Shown: positions 809-28,754 of the stretch, in pieces
Layout of the letters: each line of letters opens with the position of its first letter
Numbering within the stretch: position 1 is the stretch's first letter
IMG/VR virus record: IMGVR_UViG_3300010362_000058
Coordinates: 1-35,049 of that record
Source of the DNA: a virus
Lineage: Duplodnaviria; Caudoviricetes
DNA: 35,049 nt
Strand: one strand, 5' to 3'
Position numbers and translations under genes: made by a program
The notes under the pieces: generated by a model
What the model was told of the DNA's origin: nothing
What the model saw: only the letters and a program-made list of their open reading frames with translations
Database searches by the model: none

Positions 809-817
809 GGGGCGGAC

Positions 818-991
818 ATGCCACGCGGCGGCAAATTTGGCGGACGGCACGGCCCGTCGATCAAGAACCCGGCGACCTACGAGGCGCTGCGGCGGACGAT
901 GTCGAAGGCCCGCGCGGCGGCGATCTCGAATGCGGCGCTCAACAAGGGCTATCGGCGCGGCGTCCACGGACGCAGTCGGCGCCGGCGATAG
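818..991 (+). CDS. Small basic protein, 57 aa (MPRGGKFGGRHGPSIKNPATYEALRRTMSKARAAAISNA...RSRRRR)
   Basis: Translated by hand (below the ORF-track cutoff); GGGGG RBS before ATG 818; GPSIK..YEALR..MSK..AA.ISNA resembles a known small conserved protein family; fills the gap after terL. Confidence 0.7.
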   Translation: MPRGGKFGGRHGPSIKNPATYEALRRTMSKARAAAISNAALNKGYRRGVHGRSRRRR

Positions 992-1001
992 GAGGGAACC
1001 G

Positions 1002-1136
1002 ATGCTGCACGCAACCTGCACCTACACCTGCCCGCCGGACGTGCCGTGCCAATTGCCGACGCCATGGCCGCCGGCGCCGGTGCCGACCGCCCCGGAGCCG
1101 CTTTCGCCGCGCGCGGCGACGACAAGGGGGAGATAG
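1002..1136 (+). CDS. Small Cys/Pro-rich hypothetical protein, 44 aa (MLHATCTYTCPPDVPC...)
   Basis: GGAGGG RBS before ATG 1002; its stop abuts the next ATG at 1137. Confidence 0.55.
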   Translation: MLHATCTYTCPPDVPCQLPTPWPPAPVPTAPEPLSPRAATTRGR

Positions 1137-1352
1137 ATGGCCTGCTACCCATGCCAGCAGCAGCGGCAGGCGTTCGTCCGCGCCGCGCGCACGTTCGATC
1201 TGCGCGGCGCCGCGCGCGCCGTCGGGACCGCGGCCGCCATCAACTACGACAAGGTCCGCGGTCTGTCGCAGGCGGAGGTTGACGCCAAGTATGGCGGGCG
1301 CCCGGTCGTCCGGGCGACGCCGTATCGCCGCCCGCCCGACCGCACGGTTTAG
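1137..1352 (+). CDS. Hypothetical protein with N-terminal CxxC (MACYPC)
   Basis: GGGGAG RBS; tight packing between neighbouring genes. Confidence 0.65.
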   Translation: MACYPCQQQRQAFVRAARTFDLRGAARAVGTAAAINYDKVRGLSQAEVDAKYGGRPVVRATPYRRPPDRTV

Positions 1353-1355
1353 CCC

Positions 1356-2648
1356 ATGCGCTGGTTCCCCGCCGCCGTCTTTCGCAAGCAGACGCCGACG
1401 TCGCCAATAACGTCGCCGTCCCCGCCGCCGTCCGGGCCGCCCGTCGAGTCGGCCGGGGGGCCATTGATCGGCTTCAACCGCACCAACGAGGTGATGCTGC
1501 GCGAATACACCCGCAGCATCTACCTCTGGCGCTGCGTCGACATGATCGCGCAGATGTCGTCGTCCATCGTCCTCGACGTCATGGCGAAGGAAAACCGCCC
1601 GCTCACCGACGACGAGCGCCAGATCGACGATCTGGTGAAGCACCCGAACCCGCAATGGACGGCGGCGCAATTGCAATACTTCATCGCCGCGTCGCTCGGC
1701 GTTGCCAATCGGGCGTTTTTGAAGCGCGTCCGGTCGGCGGTCGACGGCGCCACGCTGGAGCTCTGGCCGATCCCGGCAAACGAGGTTCAACCCCGCTTCT
1801 ACCCGAACTCGCAGGTGATCGAGGCCTGGGAGCGCGTGACCGCGTCCGGCAAGGAGGAATATCCGATTGACGAGACCGGCGACAGCGATCTGATCTGCGT
1901 CCGCCGGCCGGCGCTCAACGAGGCAACCGACAGATCGCCGGCGGTCGTCGCGCTGGCGCCGGCGGAGGTGTTCACCCGCATCCTCCAGCGCTGCTACGAC
2001 ATCGTCAGCAACGCGTCGAACATCACCGGCATGCTGTCGACCGAGACCGAGATCGGCAAGACCGCGGTCCGGGAAATCAAGGACACGCTGCTGAAATATC
2101 GGACCGGCGGCGGCGATTCGGGCGGCGTGCTCGTCACCGCCAACGCCAAGTGGGATCTGACGCGGCTGTCGGAGGACCCGTCGCAGGCGCTGTCGGTGTC
2201 GATCAAGGACTCGCTCGCCCGCGACGTTTGCATGACCTTCGGCGTGCCGACGCAACTGGTCGGCATTCCGGGGACCGACACCTACAACAACCTCGCGCTC
2301 GCCCGCGTCGGCCTGCTCACCGACACGGTGCTGCCCGGCTACATCAACCTCTATGTGTCGGCGCTAAATCATGCGCTGATGCAGGGCGAGCTAGGCGCCG
2401 CCCGGATCGTCCCCAATGTCGCGGCGATCCCGTCGATGGCCGCGTCCCGCCTGCAACTGGTCGACACCGCCAGCAAGGCGACGATGCTGTCCGTCAACGA
2501 GCAGCGCGGGCTGCTCGGCTACCCGCCCTATGACGACGACGAGATGGCCGACGTCCCGGTGCTGCTGGAGCAGATGCGGCGCCTGCGCCTCCAGGTCGAG
2601 CTGGCGGGCGGCGGCGCGGCGATCCCGCTCGACGACGAGCCCACCTAG
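1356..2648 (+). CDS. Phage portal protein (HK97-like)
   Basis: RCVDMIAQ, HPNP, ELWPIP, DVCMTFGVP..LVG, TYNN and SVNEQR.LLGYPP motifs; position after terminase. Confidence 0.9.
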   Translation: MRWFPAAVFRKQTPTSPITSPSPPPSGPPVESAGGPLIGFNRTNEVMLREYTRSIYLWRCVDMIAQMSSSIVLDVMAKENRPLTDDERQIDDLVKHPNPQWTAAQLQYFIAASLGVANRAFLKRVRSAVDGATLELWPIPANEVQPRFYPNSQVIEAWERVTASGKEEYPIDETGDSDLICVRRPALNEATDRSPAVVALAPAEVFTRILQRCYDIVSNASNITGMLSTETEIGKTAVREIKDTLLKYRTGGGDSGGVLVTANAKWDLTRLSEDPSQALSVSIKDSLARDVCMTFGVPTQLVGIPGTDTYNNLALARVGLLTDTVLPGYINLYVSALNHALMQGELGAARIVPNVAAIPSMAASRLQLVDTASKATMLSVNEQRGLLGYPPYDDDEMADVPVLLEQMRRLRLQVELAGGGAAIPLDDEPT

Positions 2649-3368
2649 ATGCTGGTCGACGTCGAATCGGACCGCGAATTTCAGGCCTATTGCGACCGGG
2701 TCGAGCGGCGGCTCTATGCCGACATGGTGCCGGTGCTCGTCGCCGGCGTCCGGCTCCAGGTCGCCCGCACCGGCGTCCGCGCCCAGGACTACGTCGAGGC
2801 GCGCGGCGCCCCGATCCTGCTGCGCTACTACCGGCGCATCTATCGCGATCAATTCCGCGCGGTCGGCGCGGCGCTGGCCGAGGAAAAGGCCGAGACGCTC
2901 ACCGGGTTCATGGCCGAGCAGCTGCGCTGGCTCGCCCGGACCGCCGGGGCGCAAATCCGGCGGATCGCGGAATCGCTGCGCCGGGACGTCGCCGACCTTG
3001 TGATGGCGCGGGTCCGGGCGGGGAAATCCAACGACGTCATCGCCCGCGAAATCGCCCGCATGGCGCCCGAGATCGCGCGGCCGCGCGCCGCCGCCATCGC
3101 CCGCACAGAGACCCACAACAGCGCAGTCGCCGCGGTCGACGCGACGCTGCAATACAAGCGGATCACCGTCCGCACCAAGACCTGGTGGAGCGCACAGGAT
3201 CGCCGCGTCCGGCCGAGCCATCAGGAGGCGCATGGCCAGACCGTGGCCCATGATCAGGCGTTTACGGTCGGCGGCGCCGCCATGATGCGCCCGGGCGACT
3301 CCAGCATGGGCGCCGGCCCGGAGGAGATCATCAACTGCCGCTGCGCCGTGCTGTTCAATACGGCATAG
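2649..3368 (+). CDS. Head morphogenesis protein (Mu gpF / SPP1 gp7-like)
   Basis: RA..IARTET, KTW....DRRVRPSH, HGQ, MMRPGD and EIINCRC signature motifs. Confidence 0.92.
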   Translation: MLVDVESDREFQAYCDRVERRLYADMVPVLVAGVRLQVARTGVRAQDYVEARGAPILLRYYRRIYRDQFRAVGAALAEEKAETLTGFMAEQLRWLARTAGAQIRRIAESLRRDVADLVMARVRAGKSNDVIAREIARMAPEIARPRAAAIARTETHNSAVAAVDATLQYKRITVRTKTWWSAQDRRVRPSHQEAHGQTVAHDQAFTVGGAAMMRPGDSSMGAGPEEIINCRCAVLFNTA

Positions 3369-3559
3369 ATTGTCGCAGGGGTAAGTCATTGACGGACCGG
3401 GGGCGGGGGCCCGGCCGCGGTCCGATCCGCGCGCAAGATGTCCGCTGTTCATCGGGTCAAGCGATTCCGGAAATTATTTTCGGGCTTTGATCCGCAAAGC
3501 AAAACGAGCAAGAAACCCCGATAAAACGGGCACTTCTCGCAAAGTCGCTGAGGCGCATT

Positions 3560-3619
3560 TGCTATAATAGCTGCACGTTCGGTCGGGGGGCGTTCCCCCG
3601 CCGGGCGGGCTATTTGACA
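3560..3619 (+). promoter_or_regulatory. Extended -10 promoter (TGcTATAAT) within palindrome GCTATAATAGC, followed by a GC hairpin (3584-3600) and boxA-like GCTATTTGACA
   Basis: Motifs read directly, in an AT-richer intergenic region upstream of ORF 3636. Confidence 0.55.
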
Positions 3620-3635
3620 TTGTGGAGAAACGAAG

Positions 3636-3914
3636 ATGACGACGACGCAAAACGGCGGCGCGCACGAGTGCGCCGACTGCACTCACTTCCTCGCGCTGAC
3701 GGCAAGTTGGCCGGGCGGGTGGGCGCGGTCAACGACAGCGGAAAAGGCGCTCGCGGCCCTCCGGGCCGACTGGGGGCCGACCGTCCGGACGCACGGATAC
3801 ATGCTCTACCGCGTGCATCCCGAGACGGAGATGGATGAGCTTGCCTCATTCGTCTTCCCGCGCGGCCATGCCCCGACGCTGGTCGAGGACAAATCCAAGC
3901 GCGGCCGCCGCTGA
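3636..3914 (+). CDS. Hypothetical accessory protein
   Basis: GGAG RBS, promoter upstream, hairpin downstream. Confidence 0.65.
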   Translation: MTTTQNGGAHECADCTHFLALTASWPGGWARSTTAEKALAALRADWGPTVRTHGYMLYRVHPETEMDELASFVFPRGHAPTLVEDKSKRGRR

Positions 3915-3947
3915 AAAAAAGCCGCCGGGGGGATCGGCCCCGGCGGC
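3914..3947 (-). terminator. Intrinsic terminator-like hairpin with the U-tract on the minus strand
   Basis: AAAAAAA GCCGCCGGGG-ggatcgg-CCCCGGCGGC. Confidence 0.55.
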
Positions 3948-3978
3948 CCACCAACCAACAGAAAGGAAGTGACGAACG

Positions 3979-4422
3979 ATGCCCAATCCTATCACGATCA
4001 CGCTCCGCGCGGAAGACGCGGAGCCCATCCTCCGCGAGGAAGCCCGCAAGGCCGCGTTCTATGGCGCGCTAGGGGACTACATCACCAAGCGCACCTGGGA
4101 CACGCCCGGCGGGCGGAGCCTAGCGGACGACCGGCAATGCTGGCAGCGGGAATTCCTGCGGGCGAAGCGGATCGTCGAATCCTTCGGCGTCGAATACGAG
4201 CCGACGTCGGAGGAGGAGACAATGACCGTCCAATTCCCGATGAAAAACGAGAAGCGGACGCCGGTCGTCGTCGCCGGCCTGATCAAATACACGCGGGTCG
4301 AGGGCGGCGAGCCCGACTACAAGAAACCGGAGCCGCGCTACCGCCGCGGCGTCCATGCCGAGGCCTGCATTCAGGCCGCCGACCGGGTCGTCCGCCGCTG
4401 GCGGGCGACGCTAGGCGACTAG
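3979..4422 (+). CDS. Hypothetical accessory protein; possible second in-frame start at 4222
   Basis: AAGGAAG RBS before 3979; internal GGAGGAG-aca-ATG at 4222. Confidence 0.65.
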   Translation: MPNPITITLRAEDAEPILREEARKAAFYGALGDYITKRTWDTPGGRSLADDRQCWQREFLRAKRIVESFGVEYEPTSEEETMTVQFPMKNEKRTPVVVAGLIKYTRVEGGEPDYKKPEPRYRRGVHAEACIQAADRVVRRWRATLGD

Positions 4423-4524
4423 GCGGCGGGGGCCGCCCCCGGGCGGCCCCCCCTTCCCGGATCGGCGGGGCCACTTTACCGCTTCCGGGAATAGGACTAT
4501 CGTCTGCACCCATCTCCGTCGGGG

Positions 4525-5238
4525 ATGGGCGCGATGCTGTTTTCCGACATGACGCTGGGCCGGTTGGAGACCAAGGCCGTCGCCGACGGTGACGAGGTCG
4601 CGCACTTTGCCGGCGTCGCGTCGACGTCCGACATCGACCTAGTCGACGACATCATCGAGCCCGGCGCGTTCGGCAAGATCGTCCCCAAGGACGTCGCGCT
4701 GCTGCGCGATCATGTCGGCACCCAATGCATCGGCGGCTGGACCGGATTCGAGCAGGACGGCAAGCACCTGCGCGTCGAGGGCGACATTTCGCTCGCGATC
4801 CCGCTCGGCCGCGAAACCTACACGCTGATGAAGCAGGGATTTCTATCCGGGATCAGCGTCGGCTACCGCATCCGCAAGGGCGGGATGGCCTTCGACGAGG
4901 CCAGCGGCGTCCGCCGGATCAAGAAGGCGACGCTGGTCGAGTGCTCCATCGTCGCGGTCCCGGCCAATCGCGGGGCGCGCGTCCGCTCGGTCAAATCGCT
5001 GCTCGGGTCGCCGGCCGAATTGCACGAATGGCTGGCGGACGCCGGGTTTGACGACCGCGAGATCGACGTCGTGATCAGCCGGGGATTTGACGCGCTGCGG
5101 CGCGACGAGCGCGGCGCCCTCCGCATCCATGGGGTCGACGGGTTCGGCCGATTGCCGACCGACGACCAGTGTTCCGCTTTGGCAGAGGCCGTCCGCGGCC
5201 TCGTTAACGACGTGAGGCAGCCCAATGTCCACAGTTGA
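4525..5238 (+). CDS. HK97-family prohead protease
   Basis: D...DIIEPGAF, LLRDH, IGGW, GISVGY and ECSIVAVPAN catalytic His/Ser motifs; directly before the capsid gene. Confidence 0.93.
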   Translation: MGAMLFSDMTLGRLETKAVADGDEVAHFAGVASTSDIDLVDDIIEPGAFGKIVPKDVALLRDHVGTQCIGGWTGFEQDGKHLRVEGDISLAIPLGRETYTLMKQGFLSGISVGYRIRKGGMAFDEASGVRRIKKATLVECSIVAVPANRGARVRSVKSLLGSPAELHEWLADAGFDDREIDVVISRGFDALRRDERGALRIHGVDGFGRLPTDDQCSALAEAVRGLVNDVRQPNVHS

Positions 5239-6580
5239 GGACCGCATCGCCGAACTGCTCAAGGAGATTCAAACCGCCCGGACCGATCTGGCCAAGGGCG
5301 ACGACGCGCGGATGGCTGCCCTCGCCGAGCTTCGCGCCGACGTCGAGAAGGGGTCGAAATCGGTCGGCGAGGTCACGGCCAAAATCGACCGGATCAGCGC
5401 CGATATGGCGGCGCAGGCGACCCGGGCGCAGACGCTAGAGGCGGCAATCGAGACGCTGTCGAAGAAGGTCGGCCGGCCGGGCGGTCCGGAATTTTCCGAC
5501 GAGGTCAATCGCAAGGCCGCGCTCGGCCTGCTCGAATTGCGGCATCTCGCGCGGGTCCCGAAGCGGGACGCCGAGCACCCGTTCAAGCCGACCGAGGAGC
5601 AGATCGCCGAGGCGGCGACCGCCATCAAGGGCGTGCGCGGTCTGCTCAAGACGACCGACATCGGCAACCTCCCCGAGGATTGCCGCAAGGCGCTGACGTC
5701 GTTCAATCTCGGCTCGTCCGGCTTCATTTTGCCGCCGGAAATGTCGTCGCGCGTGCTCTCCTGCCTGGAGGACATCACCGACGTCGCCGGGCTCATGCAG
5801 AACATCACCATTAGCGGCCCGTCGATCAAATTCATGGTGGACGACGCGCGGCTCATGGAGGCGGCATGGGCGTGCCAGACCGATTGCTTCGCCAACAACC
5901 CGGCCGGCGATCTGACCCGCGGGCTCGGCGAGCTAGAGCTTAGGCCGGAGACGCTCCGCTTCATCGTGTGCACGTCGCGCGACATTTTGGAGGACGCCTC
6001 GGTCGACATGGAAACCTGGATGCTCGGCAAGGTGAACTGGGCATTCCGCAACACGATCAGCACGGCGATCATTTCCGGCGACGGGATCGGGAAGCCCATC
6101 GGCATTCTCAACCCGGCGTCGGGCATCCCCATCTGCGACGTCTCGGCGTCGACGCCCGCCGGTCAATTCACGTGGCAGGATTTGGTGCTGCTCAAGTGGC
6201 AGGTGCCGATGCAATTCCATGGCGGCGGCGGCGCCGGCGGGGGCCGCTATCTCATGAACCAGAACACCTTCGGCCTGGTGTTGACGATGTCCGACGCCAT
6301 GGGCCGGCCGATCATGATCGCGACGCCGACCGAGGCCGGGGTATTCACCATCGCCGGCTCGCCGGTGCAGATCGTCACGCAGATGCCGGACGTCGCGCCG
6401 GGATCGACCCCGGTCGCCTTCGGCAACTGGAACATCGCCTACATGGTGGTGAACCGCCGAGCCGTCACCATGCAACAGGACCCATACAGCGCCGGCTTCT
6501 GCGTGCTCTACAAGTTCGAGGCGCGCGTCGGCGGCGGGATCATTTGCGCCAACGCGGCGCGGCTGATGCGCATCCGCTAG
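5225..6580 (+). CDS. HK97-fold major capsid protein with N-terminal coiled-coil (delta/scaffold) domain
   Basis: GFILPPE, GDG.GKPIGIL, YLMN..T, G.PV, VAFGNW and RVGG motifs; helical N-terminus. Confidence 0.95.
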   Translation: MSTVEDRIAELLKEIQTARTDLAKGDDARMAALAELRADVEKGSKSVGEVTAKIDRISADMAAQATRAQTLEAAIETLSKKVGRPGGPEFSDEVNRKAALGLLELRHLARVPKRDAEHPFKPTEEQIAEAATAIKGVRGLLKTTDIGNLPEDCRKALTSFNLGSSGFILPPEMSSRVLSCLEDITDVAGLMQNITISGPSIKFMVDDARLMEAAWACQTDCFANNPAGDLTRGLGELELRPETLRFIVCTSRDILEDASVDMETWMLGKVNWAFRNTISTAIISGDGIGKPIGILNPASGIPICDVSASTPAGQFTWQDLVLLKWQVPMQFHGGGGAGGGRYLMNQNTFGLVLTMSDAMGRPIMIATPTEAGVFTIAGSPVQIVTQMPDVAPGSTPVAFGNWNIAYMVVNRRAVTMQQDPYSAGFCVLYKFEARVGGGIICANAARLMRIR

Positions 6581-8453: not shown

Positions 8454-9019
8454 TGGCCGATTCCCTGGACGCCGCGGACCCCGTCGTCGCCGCCTACGAG
8501 ATCGCCAAGCTGCACGCGGCGGTTGACGGCGCCTTTGACGAGCGGCTGATGCGCCACTGGTTCGAGGCGGCATGGGATTTGTGCGCCGCCATGGTCGGGC
8601 TGGTGTTCCCGCCGCTGCCGGTCGACGAGATTGTGACCGTCGCCCCCGACGGCGCCATCCTGCTGTCGTCGCCCCCGGCCGGCGACGTGCGCTTCTTCAG
8701 CGGGCCGAATCTCGTCGCGGTGCTGCCGCCGAATTCGCCATGCTTCGGGCCCCGGCCCGGCTCGCTATTCGACGACGAGTCGGGCGTCGGTCTGCGCTGC
8801 CCGGACCTGTGCTGCTATTGCAATGTGAGGGCGATTTACATCACCGACGGCGGGCTTGGGATCGAATGCGACGAGGTCCCGCCGTGGTTCGTCCAGGCGG
8901 TCGCCCGCCTATTCACCTATATCGCCGAGAACCGGGGCGACACCGAGATGGACGAGCGCGTCCTGGCAAAATCCGGCGCGAAGGCCTTCCTCGGCCCGCA
9001 CCTTTCATACGCGTTGTGA
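8453..9019 (+). CDS. Head-tail connector (HK97 gp6 / SPP1 gp15-like) with Cys-rich insert
   Basis: AKLHAAVD...D..L....AA N-terminus, VP....QAV..L..Y.ENRG C-terminus; CPDLCCYC insert. Confidence 0.8.
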   Translation: MADSLDAADPVVAAYEIAKLHAAVDGAFDERLMRHWFEAAWDLCAAMVGLVFPPLPVDEIVTVAPDGAILLSSPPAGDVRFFSGPNLVAVLPPNSPCFGPRPGSLFDDESGVGLRCPDLCCYCNVRAIYITDGGLGIECDEVPPWFVQAVARLFTYIAENRGDTEMDERVLAKSGAKAFLGPHLSYAL

Positions 9020-9021
9020 CC

Positions 9022-9945
9022 ATGGCGGCGCCGTCGCTCCAGATCGAATATTGGCCGACGGATCGGCTGCTGCCCTATGCCGCCAACGCCCGCACGCATC
9101 CGGAGGCGCAGGTGTCGCAGATCGCGGCGTCAATTCGCGAATTCGGGTTCAACGTGCCGTGCCTCGTCAACGACGCCGGCGAGCTTGCCGCCGGCCACGG
9201 CCGCGTCCTGGCGGCGAAGCGCCTCGGCCTCGTCGACGTCCCGGTCATCCGCCTATCCCACCTGACGGAGGCGCAGCTGCGCGCGTTCCGTCTCGCGGAC
9301 AATCGGATCGCGCTCAATTCGGACTGGGACCTTGCAATCCTGTCCGGCGAGCTAGCGCGCATCGTGAAGGAGGACGCGCTCGACCCGGCGCTGCTCGGCT
9401 TCGGGGACGACGAAATCGCGGCGCTGCTCAAGGCGCCGACCGCCGGCGACGGGGACGCCGGCGCCGCGGCCGCCGCGGCCGAGGTCAAATTGGCCGACCG
9501 CTTCGGGGCGGTCCCGTTCTCGGTGTTCAATGCGCGGGAGGGCTGGTGGCAGGACCGCAAGCGGGCCTGGATCGCGCTCGGCATTCAATCCGAGCTAGGC
9601 CGCGGCGAAAACCTGATCGGCCGGTCGCTGCATGATCGCCTGTCGATGATCCTCGGCGTTCATTACCGCGACGTCGTTCGCTTCATCGAGGAGCACCGGG
9701 CGCGCGGGCTCGACGACGCCGCCATCGAGGCCGAGGCGCAGCGCGTCGCCGGCGCCCCGGCCGGCCATGACGCGCTCGCGGTCGCCCGCGGCGTCGGGTG
9801 GACCGGCGGCGTGGCGCGCCACGATCCCGCCTTTTACGAGGAGAAGCGGGCGTGGGAGCGCGCCAACGGGCGGACAATCGACACCACCGAATTCCGGCTC
9901 CATCACTATTCCCACCGACCGCGCGGGGCGGCGAATGGCGCCTAG
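9022..9945 (+). CDS. ParB/Srx N-terminal domain protein carrying the N-terminal segment usually found in phage ParB-DNA methylase fusions
   Basis: L.PY..NARTH...QV.QIAASIREFGFN.P, AGHGR and FRLADNR motifs; then FSVFNAREGWWQDRKRAW. Confidence 0.88.
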   Translation: MAAPSLQIEYWPTDRLLPYAANARTHPEAQVSQIAASIREFGFNVPCLVNDAGELAAGHGRVLAAKRLGLVDVPVIRLSHLTEAQLRAFRLADNRIALNSDWDLAILSGELARIVKEDALDPALLGFGDDEIAALLKAPTAGDGDAGAAAAAAEVKLADRFGAVPFSVFNAREGWWQDRKRAWIALGIQSELGRGENLIGRSLHDRLSMILGVHYRDVVRFIEEHRARGLDDAAIEAEAQRVAGAPAGHDALAVARGVGWTGGVARHDPAFYEEKRAWERANGRTIDTTEFRLHHYSHRPRGAANGA

Positions 9946-12157
9946 TCCCGCGCCGCAGCGCACGGTGATCCCGGCCGGCCTCGTCTATGGCCGGATGGAG
10001 GTCGAATCCAACACCGGCCTGACCGGGACGTCGATCTTCGATCCGGTCCTTTGCGAGCTAGCCTATCGGTGGTTCTGCCCGCCGGGCGGGCTCGTGCTCG
10101 ACCCGTTCGCCGGCGGGTCGGTGCGCGGGATCGTCGCGTCGCGCCTCGGCCGGCGCTACCTCGGGATCGACCTGTCGGCGCGGCAGATCGCGGCCAACGA
10201 GGAGCAGGCGCGCCGGATCTGTCGACCGCCGGCGCCGGCGCCGGAATGGCGGGCCGGCGACGCCCGCGACCTGCGCGAAATCGCCGCCGGCGTCGAGGCC
10301 GACTTCGTGTTCTCGTGCCCGCCCTATTGGAACCTGGAACGCTACAGCGACGACGACCGGGACCTGTCGACACTCGACGACTTCGACGAATTCTTTGCGG
10401 ACTACTGTGGGATCGTCGCCGCGGCGGCGGCGCTGCTGCGGCCGGATCGGTTCGCCTGCTTCGTCGTCGGCGACGTCCGTGACGCGCGCGGCTTCTATTG
10501 CGGCCTGCCATGGCGCACCGTCGAGGCATTCCGCCGCGCCGGGCTCGAGCTTTACAACGAGGCGGTGCTGATCACCGCGGCGGGGTCGCTCCCGATCCGG
10601 GCGGCGAAACAATTCGAGACGTCGCGCAAGCTTGGCAAGACTCACCAGAACTGCTTGTTGTTTTGCAAGGGCGATCCGCGCGCCGCGACGACGGCGGTTG
10701 GTCCGGTCGAATTCGGCGAGTTATTTGACGACGCGCTGGCCGACGCGCTAGCCGACGAGCGAACGCCGGCGTCAACGCCACCGCCCACGTTCACGCCAAC
10801 GCCGTCGCCTTCGCCATCGCCTTCGCCAACGGCCCCCCTGCCTGGCGTGGCCCCCTCGCGGTGGAAGGTGTCGGCCGCCTGGGGCCGCCGGGCGCATGAG
10901 TGCTCGCTGGCCGGAATCCTGCGCCGGTGTCATGGCGGCTGCTGCCGGACGGCGTCGTTCTGGCCGCCGTCGGCGTTCCAGCGGCCGGACGCGGACCCGG
11001 TTCCATGCGGGCGCCTCGGGGCGGGCGGCTGCACGTTCGCCGCCGACGACAAGCCGGTGACGTGCCACCTCTATCCGCTGATGCTCAATGAGAACGGGAC
11101 CCTGATCCTACACCACCGGACGACGTTCCAGAACGGCGTGTGCAAGGGCAATCACGGCGAGGGGCCGCCGATCATCGTCGCGCTCGCCGATAATCTCGTT
11201 CACCTATTCGGCCGCGACCAATACGAGCGGGTGCGCACCGACGTCCTCGCCGGCCGGGACTCCTTCTTCGACCCGCCGCCGGCGGTCGTCGCCGCGCTCG
11301 TCCGGGAGCATGCCTGGGCCGCGACCAACGCGCCGCCCGAGCCGCGCAGCGCCTTTTCGCCACCGCCGACGCCCGCGCCATCGCCACCGCCCACGCCGTC
11401 GCCAACGCCTACGACCGACGCGCCGACCCCAATCGAGGCGCATGGGGAATTCTGGCTTAAGCGCGACGACCTGTACGAATTCGCCGGCGTCCGCGGCGGC
11501 AAGGTGCGGACATGTCGGGCGCTCGCCGCCGGCGCGCCCGGGCTCGTCACCGCCGGGTCGCGGGCGAGCCCGCAGGTGAATATCGTCGCCCACGTCGCGC
11601 GTGCCCTCGGCGTGCCCTGTCGCGTCCATGTCCCGACCGGCGCGCTCGCCCCGGAGGTCGCGGCGGCCGCGGAATGCGGCGCCGAAATCGTCCGGCATTC
11701 GCCCGGCTACAACACGGTGATCATTGCCCGGGCGCGGGAGGACGCGGCGGCCCGCGGCTGGCGCGAGATTCCCTTCGGCATGGAATGCGAGGAGGCGGTC
11801 CGGCAGACGGCGGCGCAGGTGGGCGATTGGCCGGACGGCGTCCGGCGCGTCGTCGTTCCGGTCGGGTCGGGGATGTCGCTCGCCGGCGTGCTCGCCGGGC
11901 TCGCCCGGGCCGGTCGCGACATGCCGGTGCTTGGCGTCGCGGTCGGCGCCGATCCGACGAAGCGGCTGGACCGATTCGCTCCGGGCTGGCGCTCGCGGTG
12001 CTCGCTGGTCCGGTCGCGGCTCGACTATCACGCCGCGGCGCCGGTCGACCGGCTCGGCGACGTGGTCCTCGATCCGATATACGAGGCGAAGTGTCTGCCG
12101 TTCCTAGTCGCCGGCGATCTGCTTTGGTGCGTCGGCATTCGGCAGACGGCAACGTAG
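9935..12157 (+). CDS. Tri-domain fusion: amino-DNA methyltransferase + Cys-cluster (YkgJ/DUF3109-like) domain + PLP-dependent fold-II (ACC deaminase / D-cysteine desulfhydrase-like) domain
   Basis: DPFAGG (motif I) and SCPPY (motif IV); CHGGCC...C...C...KPVTCHLYP; LKRDD...GGK, VPVGSGMS and LDPIYEAK; two P/T/S-rich linkers. Confidence 0.85.
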   Translation: MAPSPAPQRTVIPAGLVYGRMEVESNTGLTGTSIFDPVLCELAYRWFCPPGGLVLDPFAGGSVRGIVASRLGRRYLGIDLSARQIAANEEQARRICRPPAPAPEWRAGDARDLREIAAGVEADFVFSCPPYWNLERYSDDDRDLSTLDDFDEFFADYCGIVAAAAALLRPDRFACFVVGDVRDARGFYCGLPWRTVEAFRRAGLELYNEAVLITAAGSLPIRAAKQFETSRKLGKTHQNCLLFCKGDPRAATTAVGPVEFGELFDDALADALADERTPASTPPPTFTPTPSPSPSPSPTAPLPGVAPSRWKVSAAWGRRAHECSLAGILRRCHGGCCRTASFWPPSAFQRPDADPVPCGRLGAGGCTFAADDKPVTCHLYPLMLNENGTLILHHRTTFQNGVCKGNHGEGPPIIVALADNLVHLFGRDQYERVRTDVLAGRDSFFDPPPAVVAALVREHAWAATNAPPEPRSAFSPPPTPAPSPPPTPSPTPTTDAPTPIEAHGEFWLKRDDLYEFAGVRGGKVRTCRALAAGAPGLVTAGSRASPQVNIVAHVARALGVPCRVHVPTGALAPEVAAAAECGAEIVRHSPGYNTVIIARAREDAAARGWREIPFGMECEEAVRQTAAQVGDWPDGVRRVVVPVGSGMSLAGVLAGLARAGRDMPVLGVAVGADPTKRLDRFAPGWRSRCSLVRSRLDYHAAAPVDRLGDVVLDPIYEAKCLPFLVAGDLLWCVGIRQTAT

Positions 12158-12168
12158 GGAGAAAGACA

Positions 12169-12336
12169 ATGGCAAGAAAACGAGGCGACCGGGTGCGGGC
12201 CTCGCAGCGCGCCCTGGCGGCAATGCCGCCCCGCGCGGCGAAGCGCGCGCTAGCGAAGGCGCGGGCGCAGGGCCGGACCTATCCGACGTCGGGGCAGCGC
12301 GCGCGGGCAATGCGCGGCAAGGGCAAGCGGCGCTGA
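12169..12336 (+). CDS. Small highly basic Arg/Lys/Ala-rich protein, 55 aa
   Basis: AGGGAG RBS; MARKRGDRVRASQRALAAMPPRAAKRALAKARAQGR... Confidence 0.6.
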   Translation: MARKRGDRVRASQRALAAMPPRAAKRALAKARAQGRTYPTSGQRARAMRGKGKRR

Positions 12337-12345
12337 TCGCCAACG

Positions 12346-12375
12346 AAAAAGCCCCGGGCGACGGGCGCCCGGGGC
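12346..12375 (-). terminator. Rho-independent terminator for the minus-strand gene
   Basis: AAAAA GCCCCGGGCG-acggg-CGCCCGGGGC, between convergent genes. Confidence 0.7.
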
Positions 12376-12415: not shown

Positions 12416-13393
12416 TTAGGCGGCGGCCTGCGCCGTCAGGGCGACGATGCAAAGCTTCCGGTAGCGGTCGAGCGCGACGAAGCCCGAGTCGTAGGTCTTC
12501 AGGGCGAAGGCCCGCAGGCCGTCGACGTCCCCCGCGGTCGCGAGGTCGATCAGCGCCTGCCGCGGCTTGGTGTAGGGCGGCGTGTAGGACGGCGCGCTGA
12601 AGTCCGGGGGCTCCGGGAGCGTGCCGGTTTTCGCCGCCTCAAGCGCCGCAAGCTGCTTGGGCGTGACGCGCTGCGATCCGGTGAAGACGTCCCGCGCCTC
12701 CGCGACCTGCTCGGGCGTGGCGTTCTTCGCGGTTGCGACGGGCGCCTTGGCGGCGGCCTTCTTCTTCGCGGGCGCCTTCTTGGCGCGCTTCGGCTTCGGC
12801 GCCGCCTCGGCGGGCGCGGGCTCGGGCGTCGGCTCGGCGGTCGCGTCGACCGGCGCCGGCTCGGCGAAGGCCTCGCGGCCGTGCTGCCAATCGGCGGCGG
12901 TGTCGGACGTGATCGTCTCGGCGCTGCCGGCATAAGGCATGTTCGTCTCGCTCGTCTCGTGGCCGGCGCTTGCGGCGATTTTCGACAAGACGTCGACGGC
13001 GTCGGCCTCCAGGCCGGCCATGATCGCCTCGGCGTCGGTGGTCGGGGCCTCGGTCCGGACGTCGGTGTTCTTCCGGCCGCGGCCCTTGCGGGCGCGGGCG
13101 GGCGGGCCGGGCAGTCGCGTGGTCTTCTTCGTCATGTCAGTCTCCGTTGGTTGGCGGTGGTCGCTGCTATTGAGGCGGAATTTCCTCGCCATGGCGGCGA
13201 GGGCGTCGGCGACGATTGCCTCGGGGTCGCGCCGTAGCTGCCGATAGAAATCCGGATTCGAGTGGGCGTCCCAGCCGCGCTGGAATGCCTTCGTCTCCGG
13301 GGATCGGTCCGAAAAGCGCGAGGCGATGCGCAGGGCGCCGATTTGGTCGCCCGCCGCCCAGGCCTCGCGCAATTGGGTGAGTTTGGCCTTCAT
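12416..13393 (-). CDS. Hypothetical protein, apparently two small-gene modules in one frame (internal start 13135), with a Lys/Ala-rich linker
   Basis: GGGGAG RBS at the start, GGAG RBS before MTKKTT; KPKRAKKAPAKKKAAAK; C-terminal LPEPPDFSA...RYRKLC.AL domain. Confidence 0.75.
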   Translation of the reverse strand: MKAKLTQLREAWAAGDQIGALRIASRFSDRSPETKAFQRGWDAHSNPDFYRQLRRDPEAIVADALAAMARKFRLNSSDHRQPTETDMTKKTTRLPGPPARARKGRGRKNTDVRTEAPTTDAEAIMAGLEADAVDVLSKIAASAGHETSETNMPYAGSAETITSDTAADWQHGREAFAEPAPVDATAEPTPEPAPAEAAPKPKRAKKAPAKKKAAAKAPVATAKNATPEQVAEARDVFTGSQRVTPKQLAALEAAKTGTLPEPPDFSAPSYTPPYTKPRQALIDLATAGDVDGLRAFALKTYDSGFVALDRYRKLCIVALTAQAAA

Positions 13394-16553: not shown

Positions 16554-16635
16554 CGGATCGTATGGACGCGGCGTACCTGAAGCGGTAGAGTTGCCCCCGC
16601 CGACGCCCCCCGCACGGCGTCGGGGGAGGGCCGCC

Positions 16636-18174
16636 ATGGCGCAAAACGGAATTTCCCTAGCCGCCGCGCGCGGCAACTTCCTGACGTGGTGCATCTCCGG
16701 CTATTTGCCGCTTCAGGAACTATGCCGCCCGCTGTTCATCGGACAGCAACTTGACGGCGCCGAGGGCGTCCCGGGCGAATACTACATTCTCTATTCGGCC
16801 AACGAGGCGCGCGCCAAGTTTGGCATGGGTTCGATTCTGGCCTGGATGGCCAAGCAGCACTTCGACTGCTGTCCGGAATTGCCGCTCTATGCCGCGCCGG
16901 TCGCCGACCCGACGACGGGCGCCACCGCCGCGGTCAACACCATCACGATCACCGGGCCGGCGACGGACAACGGGGCGCTGTCGGTTTCGATCCTGGACGA
17001 AATGTTCGCCGTGGGCGTGATCGCCGGCGCGACCGCCGACAACATGGCCGCGGCGCTCGCGGCCGAATTGCAGAAGAACGCCGATTTGCCGTTCACCGTC
17101 ACGGTTGCGGCCGGCGTTATTACGCTGACGGCGAAGAACAAGGGGCCGGCGGGCTCCTGGTTCTCGCCGATTTGGAACCCGAATTTCGGCGACGCCTTCC
17201 CGGCCGGCGTCACCGTCGTGTCCGCGCAGACGACGCCGGGCACCGGCGTGCTCGACGTCGACGCCGCGATCCCGGCAATGGCGTGTCCCTGGGATTGCAT
17301 CGCCCTCGGCACCGAGGACGAGATCGCGGTCAACACCTTCGTCCTATTGGTCCGGCAGAACTGGCGCTGCGGCGTCCAAGGGAATTTCAAGGACGGGCAT
17401 CTGTTCCATAGCCGGACCGACAGCGCCGGGCAGATCGCCGCCTATGGGCGCGACCGCAACAATCCGGAGGAGTGCGTCGTTCCCGTCCGGACCGGCTACA
17501 AGTATCCGGGCTATATCATGGCGGCAGCGTTCGCCTCGCGCGTCTGCTGTACGGCATGCGTCGACCCGTCCCGCCCGGTCCAATACGACAACGGCGTCCT
17601 CTGCCTGCTGTACGATTCGCGGGTCTGTGCCAGCATTTGGACGACGGAGGAAAAGCGCGCATTTTACGACGCCGGCATCGCCAACTGGGACGTCGCCTAC
17701 TCGCGCGGCGTGCGCCAGACCGCGCTATGGATCGAGGAGCCGCTGACGACGTACAAATATGACCCCATGACCGGCGCGCCCGACGGCGCCTGGCAGCGGG
17801 TCGAAAGTCGCTACACGACGGCGAAATTCGTCCGCGACCTGGGCAACTGGTATCGCCGTAACTATGCGTCCGTCAGCCTGGTCAGCGACGGAACGCGCAT
17901 CCCGCAGGGCAAGCGCGCGGTATCGCCGCGTATTCTGCAAGCGTCGATCCTGGCCTGGTTGCGCGGGACGCAAATCGGCTGGACCGCCGAGGACCCCGGC
18001 CAGCTTGAGCGCATGGTCCGGGTCGAGCGGACGAACACGCCGAACAATTGCGACCCGAACCGGGTCAACGTGCTGATCGACCTGGATCTGGTCAACCAGC
18101 TAGCGCGCATCGCAACCAGCATCGACGTGTCGCCGGAATTCGCCTGCATTCCGCCGATAGCCGTCGCGGCCTAA
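16636..18174 (+). CDS. Contractile tail sheath protein (Mu gpL-like), 15 Cys
   Basis: GGGAGGG RBS; FGMGS.LA.M, ITLTAKNKG..G, DPSRP, TTYK and DPNRVNV...DLVNQL motifs. Confidence 0.93.
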   Translation: MAQNGISLAAARGNFLTWCISGYLPLQELCRPLFIGQQLDGAEGVPGEYYILYSANEARAKFGMGSILAWMAKQHFDCCPELPLYAAPVADPTTGATAAVNTITITGPATDNGALSVSILDEMFAVGVIAGATADNMAAALAAELQKNADLPFTVTVAAGVITLTAKNKGPAGSWFSPIWNPNFGDAFPAGVTVVSAQTTPGTGVLDVDAAIPAMACPWDCIALGTEDEIAVNTFVLLVRQNWRCGVQGNFKDGHLFHSRTDSAGQIAAYGRDRNNPEECVVPVRTGYKYPGYIMAAAFASRVCCTACVDPSRPVQYDNGVLCLLYDSRVCASIWTTEEKRAFYDAGIANWDVAYSRGVRQTALWIEEPLTTYKYDPMTGAPDGAWQRVESRYTTAKFVRDLGNWYRRNYASVSLVSDGTRIPQGKRAVSPRILQASILAWLRGTQIGWTAEDPGQLERMVRVERTNTPNNCDPNRVNVLIDLDLVNQLARIATSIDVSPEFACIPPIAVAA

Positions 18175-18186
18175 TAGGGGGACCCC

Positions 18187-18561
18187 ATGGCGACCTGCAT
18201 CAAGTGCAAGGGCGTTCTGAATTTTGTCGTGAGCGGCCGGACGATCCGCCTCCAGTCCGACGGCGACGTCACCGTGCTGGTGTCGAACCAGAATCGCACG
18301 GAGACCTACGACGGCGAATTCACCATGGAGGACCGCAATCCGAAGATCATCGCGACGGTCGTCGTCCCCATCGACCTGTACGTCCGTTATTTCCAGGAAC
18401 TCTGCAACGTGCCGGTGGTCCTCGAGCTATGCGACGGGCGGACGTTTTCGGCCGAGGGCATGTCCAACATTTCGCAGGATCCCTACGACGCTAAAAACAA
18501 CACCCAGCCCATGGAATTGATCACGGACGAGATCGTCGAATTGCTGCCGCAGGCGGCATGA
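18187..18561 (+). CDS. Tail tube protein (Mu gpM-like)
   Basis: Size, position after the sheath, V.LELCDGRTF pattern. Confidence 0.85.
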   Translation: MATCIKCKGVLNFVVSGRTIRLQSDGDVTVLVSNQNRTETYDGEFTMEDRNPKIIATVVVPIDLYVRYFQELCNVPVVLELCDGRTFSAEGMSNISQDPYDAKNNTQPMELITDEIVELLPQAA

Positions 18562-18586
18562 TCGGCGCCGCCGACTAGGGGGTCCA

Positions 18587-19192
18587 ATGCCGTCGCGCGA
18601 ATACGCGCACCTCGAATTGCGCCAGAGCATCACCACCAAGGCCGGGCAGGAAACCCGCGACATCGTCGTCATGCGGCCGACGACCCGCGACATGATGGAG
18701 ATTCTCGACACCAAGGGGCTCATGGCGCAGACGGGTCGCTTCGTCGAGCGCCTGGTGCGCGCCCGCGCCAATGGTCACGCGCCGGCCGAATTCGACGCCG
18801 ACCAGATCGACACCGCCGACGCCAGCGAATTGAACGCGCTGCTCGTCGAGATGCTGGCCGACGGCGACGGCGTCCCGGTCGGGTCGGGCGACGGGATCAA
18901 TGAGCCGATCACCTACACGCTTCAGCGGCCGATCACCTTGAACGACGCCGGCGATACGATTTCGCAGATTCAATTCCAGGCGCGGCGCATGCGCGACGTG
19001 ACCGACTATCTCGACGCGCCGGCGGGCCAGGACTTCCTGGCATTCATGCGGGGATTTGGGCAGCTGCTCGGGACCAAGCTGCCGATGTCGGACTCGATCA
19101 TCAACGCGCTCGACTATGTCGACTACCTCACGATCCGGAGAAAAATCGTGGGAAAGCTCACGGGGCCGCGGCGGAAATGGACAAGGCTGTGA
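18587..19192 (+). CDS. Tail assembly chaperone (short form) with tandem domain
   Basis: Between tube and tape measure; two L..PIT...G...I..R....D units. Confidence 0.85.
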   Translation: MPSREYAHLELRQSITTKAGQETRDIVVMRPTTRDMMEILDTKGLMAQTGRFVERLVRARANGHAPAEFDADQIDTADASELNALLVEMLADGDGVPVGSGDGINEPITYTLQRPITLNDAGDTISQIQFQARRMRDVTDYLDAPAGQDFLAFMRGFGQLLGTKLPMSDSIINALDYVDYLTIRRKIVGKLTGPRRKWTRL

Positions 19193-19320
19193 GCATGATT
19201 GCGATTCAGCTTCGCTGGCCGCCGGGCTCGTGGGACGACCTGCCGCTCACCCGCATCCTGCGCCTTGTGAACGCGGCGTCGGAATTGGCGCGGGATCGCC
19301 GGCTGCCATTTATTGAATAG
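19150..19320 (+). CDS. -1 programmed-frameshift extension of the tail chaperone (gpG/GT or P2 E/E' type)
   Basis: Slippery G GGA AAG at 19150-19156; the -1 frame reads KAHGAAAEMDKAVSMIAIQLRWPPGSWDDLPLTRIL...FIE* to TAG 19320. Confidence 0.85.
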   Translation, partial: GKAHGAAAEMDKAVSMIAIQLRWPPGSWDDLPLTRILRLVNAASELARDRRLPFIE

Positions 19321-19331
19321 GCGGGGCCGCC

Positions 19332-21479
19332 ATGGCGGACTCCCACGCCGTCACCGTCACGCTCGGGCTCGAAACCAGGGGCGAGGAAAAGTTCGACGCC
19401 GTCTCGGACAAAATCGCCAACATCAAGGCCCAGGCGGGCGAGGCGACGGCGGCAATCCAGGAGTCGATGCCGAAGGCCGCCAAGGCCATCGAGGACGTCG
19501 GCGCCAAGACCAGCAAGGCCGTCGACGATTTGCGCGCCAAGCTGCCGGGCGTCGAAATGCCGAATCGGCAATGGGAGTGGCTGAAGCCGGGCGGGCAATA
19601 TATCGGCAAGGGCTCGGAGGCGGCAGCGGCCGAGGCGAAGGCTACGACCGAGACGGCGGCGCTCGCCGCGTCGGTAGGCGGGCTCGGGATTGCCGCCGCC
19701 GCGGCGACCGGGCTCCTGATCTCGCTGGCGGGCACGATCAAGGTGATGAGTGCCGCGGTCGACGCCGCGCAGCAGAGCGCGGCGAACGTCACCAAGGACT
19801 GGGGGCGGGCGCAGCGCAGCGGCGAAGAACTGAGCAAGTCGCAGGTCGAGGCGTCGACCGGGGCGCAATTCTTCGGCCGGCAATTGGACCTCGTCCAGTC
19901 GCAACTTCAGAAGCGGGTCACCGAGGCCCGGATCGAGAAGAAGCCGGGCCTATTCGAGCAGGTCGGCATCACGCCGGACGTCCTCCAGCAGATGCAGCAG
20001 GCGGGCCGGTTCACGCCCACCGGCGTCCTCGAATTCCTGACGTCGATGAAGGAGGCCAACCAGGCCGCGCTGGAGGCGGCCAAGACGACCGGCAAGCCGG
20101 AGGCTATCGCGGCGGCCACCGAGCAGGTGACGAAGTTCAGCCAGAACGTCGCCAACCTATTCGGCCGGGCAATGGAAACGGCCATGCAGGAGACGTCGAC
20201 GCAGGCCATAGCCGACGCGCGCGCCCGCCAAGAACGGGCACAGGGCTTGTTTGAGGCGACGCAGACGACCGTCGACAATGCGCTCGCCCTGAAAAACGCC
20301 TTCGGCGAATTGGACACCACGATGAGCAGCCTCCGCGACCGCTTCGGCGCGGGGGCGACCGAGTCCATTACCGGGTTCATCGACTCGTACACGCAAAAGA
20401 TTCAGCAGTCCGGCGCCGGCGTGTCCGACGCGCTATCGCGGCTAGCCAGCGAGGGGTTCAACCAGCTGAAGGCGGCGGTCGACGGGATCGACGCCAACGC
20501 GATGGCGTTCACCATCAAGGACGTGGTCGAGCAATTGCGCGGCGGCATCGAGACGCTCGGCTCCGTCCTGCAGGGCCTCGTCACGACAATCAACGCGCTC
20601 AATCAGGCCGGCCAATACCTGAGCAATTTCCAAAGCGCCGTGCAGGAATTCGCCCGCGATTTCGGCCTGCGCGGCCTGACCAAGGCGATGCTCGGCGAGG
20701 AGACGGCCAGCAAGATATTCGGCAAAATGGAATCGGCGCGCGAGAAGCAGGCGCGCGAGGAGGCCGAGGCCCGCGAAAAGGCCAGCGCCGAGGCGGCGAA
20801 GAAGGCGGCGGCCGAGCCAATAACCCCGGCGGCGAAGCCGGCGGCGGCGGCCGCGGCCGAGGCCGAGGTCGCCAAGGCCAAGGCGAAGGCGCCGCCCATC
20901 GACCTGACCGGAATTGATTTGACGCCCGCCGCCGCGGCGTTCGCGGGGGCGCTCGCCAGCCAGATCGACCTCACGCCGGCCGCCGGTCCGCTCGCGGCGG
21001 CGATCAACAGCCAGATCGACCTGACGTCCAAGGCCGCCGGCATTGGGGAGGCGATCACCGCCGGGATCGACCTCACGTCGAAGGCCGCCGGCGTCGGCGA
21101 GGCGATTGCCGCCGGGATCGACCTCACGTCGAAGGCCGCCGGCGTCGGCGAGGCGATCACCGCCGGGATTGATATTGCCTCCAAGGCGGTCGGCGTCGGG
21201 GAGCAGATCAGCGCCGGCGTCGACTTCACGTCGGCGGCGTCGACCGTCGCCTCAACGATCAATTCCGGCGTGAATTTCACCGGCGCGGCCCAGGCCGCCG
21301 TCGCCACGCTTAGCGCGGTCAACTGGAATGCCGCGGCATCGGCCGCCGGCGCGACTATCGCGGCGGCGATCAGCGGCGCGGCGGCCGGGATCAGGGTGCA
21401 GGTGACCGGGTCGGTGGCCGGCGCCTCGGTCAGCAGCGGCGGCAAGCCGACCGGCCGCGACGTCCCGGCGGGAGATTGA
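19332..21479 (+). CDS. Tape measure protein
   Basis: Long Ala/Gly-rich helical ORF after the chaperone; hydrophobic segment; C-terminal repeats. Confidence 0.85.
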   Translation: MADSHAVTVTLGLETRGEEKFDAVSDKIANIKAQAGEATAAIQESMPKAAKAIEDVGAKTSKAVDDLRAKLPGVEMPNRQWEWLKPGGQYIGKGSEAAAAEAKATTETAALAASVGGLGIAAAAATGLLISLAGTIKVMSAAVDAAQQSAANVTKDWGRAQRSGEELSKSQVEASTGAQFFGRQLDLVQSQLQKRVTEARIEKKPGLFEQVGITPDVLQQMQQAGRFTPTGVLEFLTSMKEANQAALEAAKTTGKPEAIAAATEQVTKFSQNVANLFGRAMETAMQETSTQAIADARARQERAQGLFEATQTTVDNALALKNAFGELDTTMSSLRDRFGAGATESITGFIDSYTQKIQQSGAGVSDALSRLASEGFNQLKAAVDGIDANAMAFTIKDVVEQLRGGIETLGSVLQGLVTTINALNQAGQYLSNFQSAVQEFARDFGLRGLTKAMLGEETASKIFGKMESAREKQAREEAEAREKASAEAAKKAAAEPITPAAKPAAAAAAEAEVAKAKAKAPPIDLTGIDLTPAAAAFAGALASQIDLTPAAGPLAAAINSQIDLTSKAAGIGEAITAGIDLTSKAAGVGEAIAAGIDLTSKAAGVGEAITAGIDIASKAVGVGEQISAGVDFTSAASTVASTINSGVNFTGAAQAAVATLSAVNWNAAASAAGATIAAAISGAAAGIRVQVTGSVAGASVSSGGKPTGRDVPAGD
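20913..21370 (+). repeat. About nine 17-aa (51-nt) tandem repeats in the tape measure C-terminus
   Basis: IDLTSKAAGVGEAITAG and degenerate copies. Confidence 0.9.
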
Positions 21480-21483
21480 TCTC

Positions 21484-22704: not shown

Positions 22705-22710
22705 TCGACC

Positions 22711-26009: not shown

Positions 26010-26014
26010 AGGCC

Positions 26015-28685: not shown

Positions 28686-28754
28686 CGTCCGGACTACCGC
28701 CCGTCCACCGCATCCGGTATGCTCGCCCCCACCCGAACCGGGGAGGGGGCCGAT

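Follow-up and report, generated by a model that had tools for sequence, protein, structure and literature searches.

A recurrent phage module joining a DNA methylase fold to a decarboxylase-type partner, with predicted new DNA hypermodification chemistry

The fold-type-II pyridoxal phosphate (PLP) enzymes gp226 of phage ViI and gp52 of phage M6 decarboxylate amino acids carried on DNA, for which a free primary amine is required (PMC8989533), DpdM, a protein of the DUF3109 type, methylates the amine of dPreQ1 in DNA (PMC10516641), and CmoX, a homolog of DNA methylases, transfers a non-methyl group from a modified form of S-adenosylmethionine (SAM) (PMC12783734). DpdM is the sole studied phage enzyme of the DUF3109 type met in our literature searches. 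In this study we analysed the virus record IMGVR_UViG_3300010362_000058 (Duplodnaviria; Caudoviricetes; 35,049 nucleotides, hereafter the window, meaning this whole stretch of DNA), in which a single open reading frame (ORF) next to a ParB gene joins an amino-methylase-fold domain, an eight-cysteine (Cys) domain and a fold-type-II PLP domain (Table 1). The DNA-modification module to which this ORF belongs is real, recurrent and, as far as our literature searches reach, undescribed, and we predict it to be a variant of phage DNA hypermodification with new chemistry.

The presence of three domains in one ORF, claimed in an earlier note made from the sequence alone, was borne out. The reading frame is open from 9767, and the motifs lie where the note had placed them: DPFAGG (10100-10117) and SCPPY (10313-10327) in the methylase fold, CHGGCC (10928-10945) and KPVTCHLYP (11051-11077) in the Cys domain, and LKRDD (11456-11470) and GGK in the PLP domain, with the predicted Schiff-base lysine, Lys523, at 11501-11503. 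Both Pro/Thr/Ser linkers were also found. Pfam recognized N6_N4_Mtase (E 5e-10) and PALP (E 4e-16, 59.8 bits against a cut-off of 35), together with DUF3109 at E 9e-5, under its curated cut-off. The note had left room for the fusion being an artefact of assembly, and other contigs spoke against it: 9000-12300 is contained whole in a Logan contig of run X1, which may be the source sample, at 3 substitutions, and 9000-10354 is covered by a contig of another sample at 43 substitutions, in both cases without a gap. Six relatives (P0004-P0009; 58-79% identity) have the identical domain order, and in each of the three domains the window and the related locus L002 differ mainly at third positions of codons. 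The gap-free contigs and this third-position bias rule out an assembly artefact.

The ParB gene overlaps the fusion ORF by 11 nt, and residues 151-200 or so of its product (LADRFG...GIQSELGRG) correspond to the N-terminal segment of the methylase family. Because this segment is encoded there and the genes overlap, the ParB gene belongs to the same unit. In many relatives the ParB protein with this segment is fused to the methylase, and the split into two genes recurs in L002 and at many other loci, which, together with the third-position bias, rules out a frameshift between ParB and methylase.

Table 1. Positions of the features identified in the window
Feature	Position	Strand	Evidence or remark
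Triple-fusion ORF P0001, 740 aa	9935..12157	+	ATG 9935, stop 12157
Class I SAM-dependent amino-methylase-fold domain	10010..10720	+	PHROG 12517 E 3e-96; PDB 2ZIE; model
Acidic and Pro/Thr/Ser linker	10721..10849	+	
DUF3109/YkgJ-like domain, eight conserved Cys	10850..11344	+	Pfam, homolog profiles, Foldseek, model
Pro/Thr/Ser linker	11345..11419	+	
Fold-type-II PLP domain	11420..12154	+	Pfam PALP; conserved K523, GSG, YEAK
ParB-N domain protein	9022..9945	+	Pfam ParB_N E 0.005; PHROG 15396 E 5e-65; PHROG 498 E 2e-50
Terminase	2-808		Pfam scan
Terminase, portal, protease, capsid genes	2-6580		Pfam + PHROG scans
Sheath, baseplate, fibres, lysin genes	16591-31291		Pfam + PHROG scans

The window fusion is no one-off, but one of five arrangements of a common module composed of ParB, methylase and a decarboxylase-type partner. 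A protein search with the fusion gave 4852 matches, and methylase and PLP pieces were present in all of the best 120 listed, a biased list since the full-fusion query favours methylase-PLP fusions. In 83 of these 120 the PLP domain interrupts the methylase after motif I and before motif IV, and the Cys domain is added in 23 (including the window's own), in five domain orders. Methylase-anchored loci contained a PLP gene in 73/80 viral and 50/80 genome cases; of the remaining genome loci, 13 were short and 17 lacked it although their flanks extended for 1.5 kb or more. The same methylase occurs in 27 records of cultured phages, with a PLP partner in Pam4 of Pseudanabaena (gp70), ZS04 of Erythrobacter (gp7), Vincenzo of Mycobacterium (gp1-2) and Mae-JY30 of Microcystis, R6L likewise being a carrier of the PLP type; other carriers are phiCTP1 (gp50-52), P2559S (gp66-67) and ZRG1, and in HCTV-2 a second methylase-like gene partners the methylase. 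The cultured carriers are annotated merely as methylase, ParB or PLP enzyme, and none has the three-domain fusion of the window. The earlier note had not recognised this architecture; the search of architectures and neighbourhoods indicates that the fusion recurs in relatives and that the module is widespread.

The functional reading is carried by an exchange of partner and by a change of the cofactor loop that goes with it. In the cultured phages P2559S (a Croceibacter phage) and ZRG1, a SAM decarboxylase (SAMDC) adjoins the same methylase. This enzyme was found in 76 of the 80 ZRG1-anchored loci, and the methylase in 79/79 new SAMDC-anchored loci, a set that is not independent because it overlaps the ZRG1-anchored one. 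We classified 401 loci with a whole methylase domain (a pool that includes repeated contigs and partner-anchored loci; L080 and L062 were excluded as too divergent) by the residues at positions 61 and 64 of motif I, which in the window reads DPFAGGSVRG with Gly61 at 10115-10117 and Arg64 at 10124-10126. The pool contained Gly/Arg with a PLP partner in 191, Gly/Arg alone in 44 (18 near a contig edge), Asp/Phe with SAMDC in 153, Asp/Phe alone in 3, Glu/Lys with a small PLP-like gene in 8 and other combinations in 2, and PLP and SAMDC partners occurred together in none of the 401. Dereplication at 75% left 108 rows, with counts in the same order of 65, 21, 14, 1, 5 and 2. After dereplication at 90%, position 64 was Arg or Lys in 106/106 PLP-linked and Phe in 32/32 SAMDC-linked sequences, and position 61 was Gly in 102 of the 106 and Asp in all 32.

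In spermidine synthase, Asp101 in this loop excludes the carboxyl of SAM (PMC1282579). The window has Gly61 there, and the Asp of its SAMDC-linked relatives matches that of SpeE by motif register only (VLIIGGGDG in E. coli SpeE, AFDCFAGDT in the clade); a residue-level match to SpeE was sought with hhalign and none was found. The Asp/SAMDC clade (support 100/100) nests among the PLP-linked methylases, and L232, which falls inside it, carries Gly and lacks a decarboxylase. A Cys-anchored metagenome scan brought up a second SAMDC lineage, the loci L451 and L452, whose proteins are identical. Here a Cys-ParB gene is accompanied by a SAM decarboxylase (Pfam E 7e-28) and by a divergent methylase that has Gln at position 64, and no PLP gene was seen in the examined DNA. 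Its grouping with the first SAMDC clade was rejected (approximately unbiased test, p-AU 0.002, with a long-branch caveat), and since it carries both a Cys domain and SAMDC, the Cys domain pairs with either decarboxylase. The distant PLP-linked loci L062, L080 and L457 keep Arg. The record of the window itself, about 55% complete, yielded no SAM decarboxylase. One candidate methylase-SAMDC fusion (P0239) was given no weight, being on a single contig and without the first SAMDC residues.

A SAM decarboxylase and a PLP enzyme could stand in for each other if the task is to remove the carboxyl from the amino-acid arm of SAM, and its removal would count for most where the arm becomes part of the product. 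The domain anatomy, its recurrence, the exchange of partners and the altered loop are observed; what follows is the scheme that we infer. Instead of its methyl group, SAM would donate its 3-amino-3-carboxypropyl arm, which the methylase fold would transfer to an exocyclic amine on a base of the phage DNA (N4 of cytosine, N6 of adenine or N2 of guanine, any of the three); the PLP domain would remove the carboxyl after transfer, leaving a positively charged 3-aminopropyl arm on the DNA; and the eight-Cys domain may tailor the resulting amine, possibly by N-methylation, which is the weakest step. The upstream ParB protein contributes the N-terminal segment of the methylase family, and loading of the enzyme onto DNA is probably its task as well. 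Decarboxylation would come before transfer at SAMDC-type loci and after it at PLP-type loci. The aminocarboxypropyl arm suits decarboxylation of the gp226 type because it has a free primary amine. For the phage, the product might give protection from restriction or help in packaging. We give this scheme of transfer, decarboxylation and tailoring an even chance of being right. Loci without any decarboxylase would either stop at an aminocarboxypropyl base or yield plain methylation. Of the options raised in the earlier note for a multi-step hypermodification, transfer of a SAM-derived group followed by PLP decarboxylation is favoured, because SAMDC stands in for the PLP enzyme at related loci, where the cofactor loop is altered too, and Cys-derived sulfur chemistry is not. 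A bolder proposal, held tentatively and at somewhat less than even chance, is that this family of 'DNA methylases' would be the first DNA aminocarboxypropyl/aminopropyl transferases, making one polyamine-like base by two routes (PLP on DNA or SAMDC beforehand), and that in the fusion a metal-dependent N-methylation would follow, so that SAM alone, without any pool of modified nucleotides, would suffice to make an N-methyl-aminopropyl base.

Additional fusions and neighbours are consistent with a handle that is an amine or a carboxyl: the methylase is fused to GNAT in L217 and P0175, 25 SAMDC loci have a SAM synthetase nearby, and amidoligase-like tails as well as QueC-like ATPases occur. A QueC-like PP-loop ATPase, which could amidate a carboxyl, is repeatedly fused to the methylase, PLP or Cys domain or encoded beside it (L426 3338-5800, L175 4728-5774, L096 4172-4870, P0312). 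As a substitute for the decarboxylase it was rejected, for it also stands beside PLP genes (L096, L426), with no exclusivity. In Staphylococcus phage Alsa_1 (L096 2834-5594), a PLP and a QueC-like gene accompany a different methylase lineage (DPCCGWGMR, SPPY), which retains Arg at the equivalent loop position. Some methylase-PLP fusions or PLP genes (P0031, P0051, P0064, L050) have an extra C-terminal domain without a Pfam match, which we take to be amidoligase-like by its motif.

In the methylase domain, modelled with a pLDDT of 93.5, the Rossmann fold is of class I, and both motif I and a motif IV of the PP(Y/F) type are present, as in N6_N4_Mtase. Canonical DNA amino-methyltransferases carry the motifs FxGxG and (D/N/S)PP(Y/F), as seen in the PDB alignments; in contrast, the window has FAGGS and CPPY, and the Cys of CPPY (Cys128) is found in 102/106 PLP-linked sequences. 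The motif order, I and then IV, is circularly permuted relative to the beta-class DNA methylases, and PDB 2ZIE aligns in two swapped pieces. The closest sequence matches are DNA amino-methylases with this order swapped. The top structural matches are the tRNA N2-methylguanosine (m2G) methyltransferases TrmN, Trm11 and Trm14 (Z 17-18; best Z 18.2, root-mean-square deviation 2.2, 164 aligned).

The PLP domain has the two marks of fold type II, a predicted Schiff-base Lys (K523) and a Gly-rich phosphate loop (VPVGSG, 11855-11872), followed by DPIYEAK at 12071-12091; K523, G644-S645-G646 and Y716-E717-A718-K719 are at least 95% conserved in 119 sequences. The window scores 136 bits with PHROG 3650, to which ViI gp226 belongs, and 48 bits with PHROG 7093, that of M6 gp52, but the former match may be circular because Vincenzo gp2 matches the same PHROG at 1e-106. 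With a profile made of the 119 window-like domains, gp226 scored 41.8, DcyD 41.5, gp52 30.8, TdcB 30.1 and CysK/CysM less than 3 bits, so that gp226 was not confirmed as the nearest studied relative. The best NCBIfam matches belong to the group of DcyD and 1-aminocyclopropane-1-carboxylate (ACC) deaminase, all well under cut-off. In Microcystis phage Mae-JY30, the gene at L101 5750-6460 bears the annotation 'DNA modification methylase' but encodes a PLP enzyme (Pfam PALP E 5e-12; PHROG 7093 E 4e-55). At L066-L069, L071 and L076, several of them from large phage contigs, a PLP gene stands without a methylase within the examined flank.

The Cys domain, which we predict to be a metal-binding tailoring enzyme, has cysteines at 323, 332, 336, 337, 358, 366, 377 and 403, each at least 97% conserved (136 sequences), and was modelled with a pLDDT of 90.6. 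Of its stand-alone homologs, 47/66 match DUF3109 at E<=0.1. Foldseek returned a viral Zn/Fe-chelating protein (E 5e-8), and neither Foldseek nor VIA-align gave a match in PDB, which is no proof of a new fold. A profile search gave 405 cluster representatives at E<=0.001; the 38 listed proteins of at least 245 aa, several of which are fragments, have it joined to methylase and PLP in 15, to methylase only in 8, to PLP only in 7 and to neither in 8. At the 19 loci with a Cys domain and a whole methylase domain, including repeats of the same contig, a PLP or PLP-like gene was present in 18 and one was cut by the contig end. In Clostridium phage phiCTP1 (gp50-52; L082 5956-7964), a Cys gene, a methylase (FGGE...K, SPPY) and a 171-aa PLP-motif protein lie directly past the DNA polymerase; its Cys gene matches the Cys domain (hhalign 98%), and the third gene, without a Pfam or PHROG match, is PLP-like by motif only (hhalign 2.3%) and only a candidate for fold II. 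A degenerate Cys domain with several Cys lost is inserted between motifs I and IV of a ParB-methylase at L439/L440 (record G002), with a PLP gene about 7 kb off.

Several observations weigh against transfer of the SAM arm and its decarboxylation on DNA. By fold, the tRNA m2G methyltransferases rank first, and no aminopropyl- or aminocarboxypropyltransferase is among the best 50 structural matches listed. The hhalign comparison of the Asp clade with E. coli SpeE was not significant, and 24 further columns differ in that clade; because of this, and because it is a single clade, the Asp/Phe loop counts as one event. Enzymes of the phiCTP1 type have Glu at 61 yet Lys at 64. The PLP domain is equally close to ViI gp226 and E. 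coli DcyD and the tree leaves its placement undecided, so that the call of a decarboxylase rests mainly on the partner swap. No decarboxylase lies within 3 kb at 44/235 Gly/Arg loci (18 near a contig edge), Pfam PALP was found in 0/5 records of such loci (2 complete), and no methylase lies in the examined flank of 13/80 PLP-anchored loci, though it turned up about 7 kb away in one of three methylase-less PLP records searched whole. The Cys domain may, by analogy, work like DpdM, but its membership of the DpdM family was not upheld, because its profiles did not pick up phiSM DpdM (hhalign 0.6% and 4.8%; a score of 0.5 bits, where the best among 500 shuffles reached 6.3). The chemistry proposed for the family is predicted from sequences and models.

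Some of these points favour plain formation of N6-methyladenine or N4-methylcytosine, the decarboxylase (PLP or pyruvoyl) draining or altering host SAM against SAM-dependent defences and the Asp clade being retuned to decarboxylated SAM as methyl donor. Every sequence and fold match is a methyltransferase, many Gly/Arg loci lack a partner, and depletion of SAM as anti-restriction is known from the T3 SAMase; this reading, which we consider unlikely, leaves unexplained the insertion of PLP and Cys domains inside the methylase, the amine-tailoring fusions and the SAM synthetase beside the SAMDC loci. The same product might also arise in another order, with the PLP enzyme decarboxylating free SAM and the methylase fold transferring aminopropyl from it. 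This would account for the swap most simply, as one enzyme for another; it is distinctly unlikely in our estimate, as the PLP-linked enzymes retain Gly61 and Arg64, a loop suited to intact SAM, and those fold-II enzymes of phages that have been studied act on DNA (PMC8989533). Slightly more doubtful still is an aminoalkyl transfer to a target that is not DNA, such as RNA, a polyamine, or a protein of the capsid or the host, or a PLP domain that deaminates or eliminates on the arm. The tRNA methylase folds and the DcyD/ACC-deaminase group of matches, far under cut-off, agree with it, and the Glu of DPIYEAK resembles that of the Tyr-Glu pair of ACC deaminase; but the coupling to ParB, the place beside terminase or DNA polymerase and the best sequence matches, which are DNA amino-methylases, all point to DNA, and the decarboxylase ViI gp226 has the same YEGK motif. 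As to cysteine-derived sulfur chemistry, in which the PLP domain would release sulfide that a thio-modification or an Fe-S cluster would use, DcyD does score level with gp226 and the Cys domain could hold Fe-S. We regard it as very improbable, because SAMDC cannot supply sulfide and could not replace a desulfhydrase, and CysK/CysM are at background; moreover, few of the listed methylase-PLP proteins (23/120) carry the Cys domain, and it occurs also with SAMDC where no PLP gene was seen in the examined DNA.

The window is a linear record of a contractile-tailed phage, and the listed runs in which it occurs are soil metagenomes, with no RNA dataset among them. The ParB gene and the fusion ORF (9022-12157) sit between the head and the tail genes, about 8 kb past the terminase, which many relatives have adjacent to the module. 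Directly after the fusion, a 55-aa Arg/Lys/Ala-rich ORF (12169-12336, +) with a purine-rich leader is followed by a GC-rich inverted repeat near 12351-12373, spotted by eye; the ORF has 91% identity over 43 aa in L002, is without a Pfam match and is possibly a DNA-condensing peptide. The N-terminal part of the next ORF (12416-13393, -) matches PHROG 18237, and its N- and C-terminal parts recur as separate small genes next to the module at many loci, among them L008, L108, L116, L352, L368 and L373.

Our literature searches found no description of the module nor of an aminopropyl or aminocarboxypropyl DNA base, although Iyer et al. 2013 may already list the neighbourhood; no DNA modification from the amino-acid arm of SAM was found in them, such transfer being known for tRNA and polyamines. 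If the proposed transfer is true, thousands of phage and prophage 'DNA methylases' are misannotated (4852 and 3935 protein matches, not all of them family members), one gene installs an amine handle on DNA after replication, and the DUF3109 domain, for which we found no solved fold, gains a testable activity. Cultured phage carriers make the test cheap.

Among the described systems, the ParB-terminase (ParB-Tls) amino-methylases (PMC4738411) resemble the module in the coupling of a ParB gene or domain to the methylase, in the amino-methylase fold and, in many relatives, in the adjacency to terminase; the module differs by its CPPY motif and its PLP, Cys and SAMDC partners, and the accessible part of that report describes no such PLP or SAMDC partner. 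DpdM, from a phage DNA-modification cluster, is like the Cys domain of the DUF3109/YkgJ type with eight Cys, but the spacing is C-x8-C-x3-CC in the window against C-x3-C-x2-CC in DpdM, so that CxxxCxxCC does not describe the window; no deazaguanine gene was recognized among the window ORFs scanned (33 by Pfam, 30 by PHROG, of 169). The enzymes ViI gp226 and M6 gp52 are, like the PLP domain, of phage origin and fold type II, gp226 shares the GYN, YE(A/G)K and W.VG motifs, and the predicted substrate of the window enzyme is likewise a free alpha-amino acid on DNA. Their substrates are made via a 5-hydroxymethyluracil kinase and an aGPT-Pplase, whereas that of the window would come from a SAM enzyme, and orthology is only a candidate; the kinase, aGPT-Pplase and deoxyuridine monophosphate hydroxymethylase were all absent from the same scans of this partial record. 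SpeE/SpeD and the tRNA aminocarboxypropyl transferases (such as TapT, PMC12630136) transfer an aminopropyl or aminocarboxypropyl arm, as predicted for the module, and the motif-I Asp of SpeE is shared with the SAMDC-linked clade, the window having Gly there; their substrates are polyamines or RNA, and no SpeE profile match to the module was significant. The CmoA-CmoX-CmoY system for carboxymethylcytosine is like the module in a non-methyl transfer (predicted for the module), a SAM-modifying partner, downstream tailoring and linkage to ParB, CmoX combining a C5-methylase fold with carboxy-SAM, whereas the module would combine an amino-methylase fold with the amino-acid arm of SAM.

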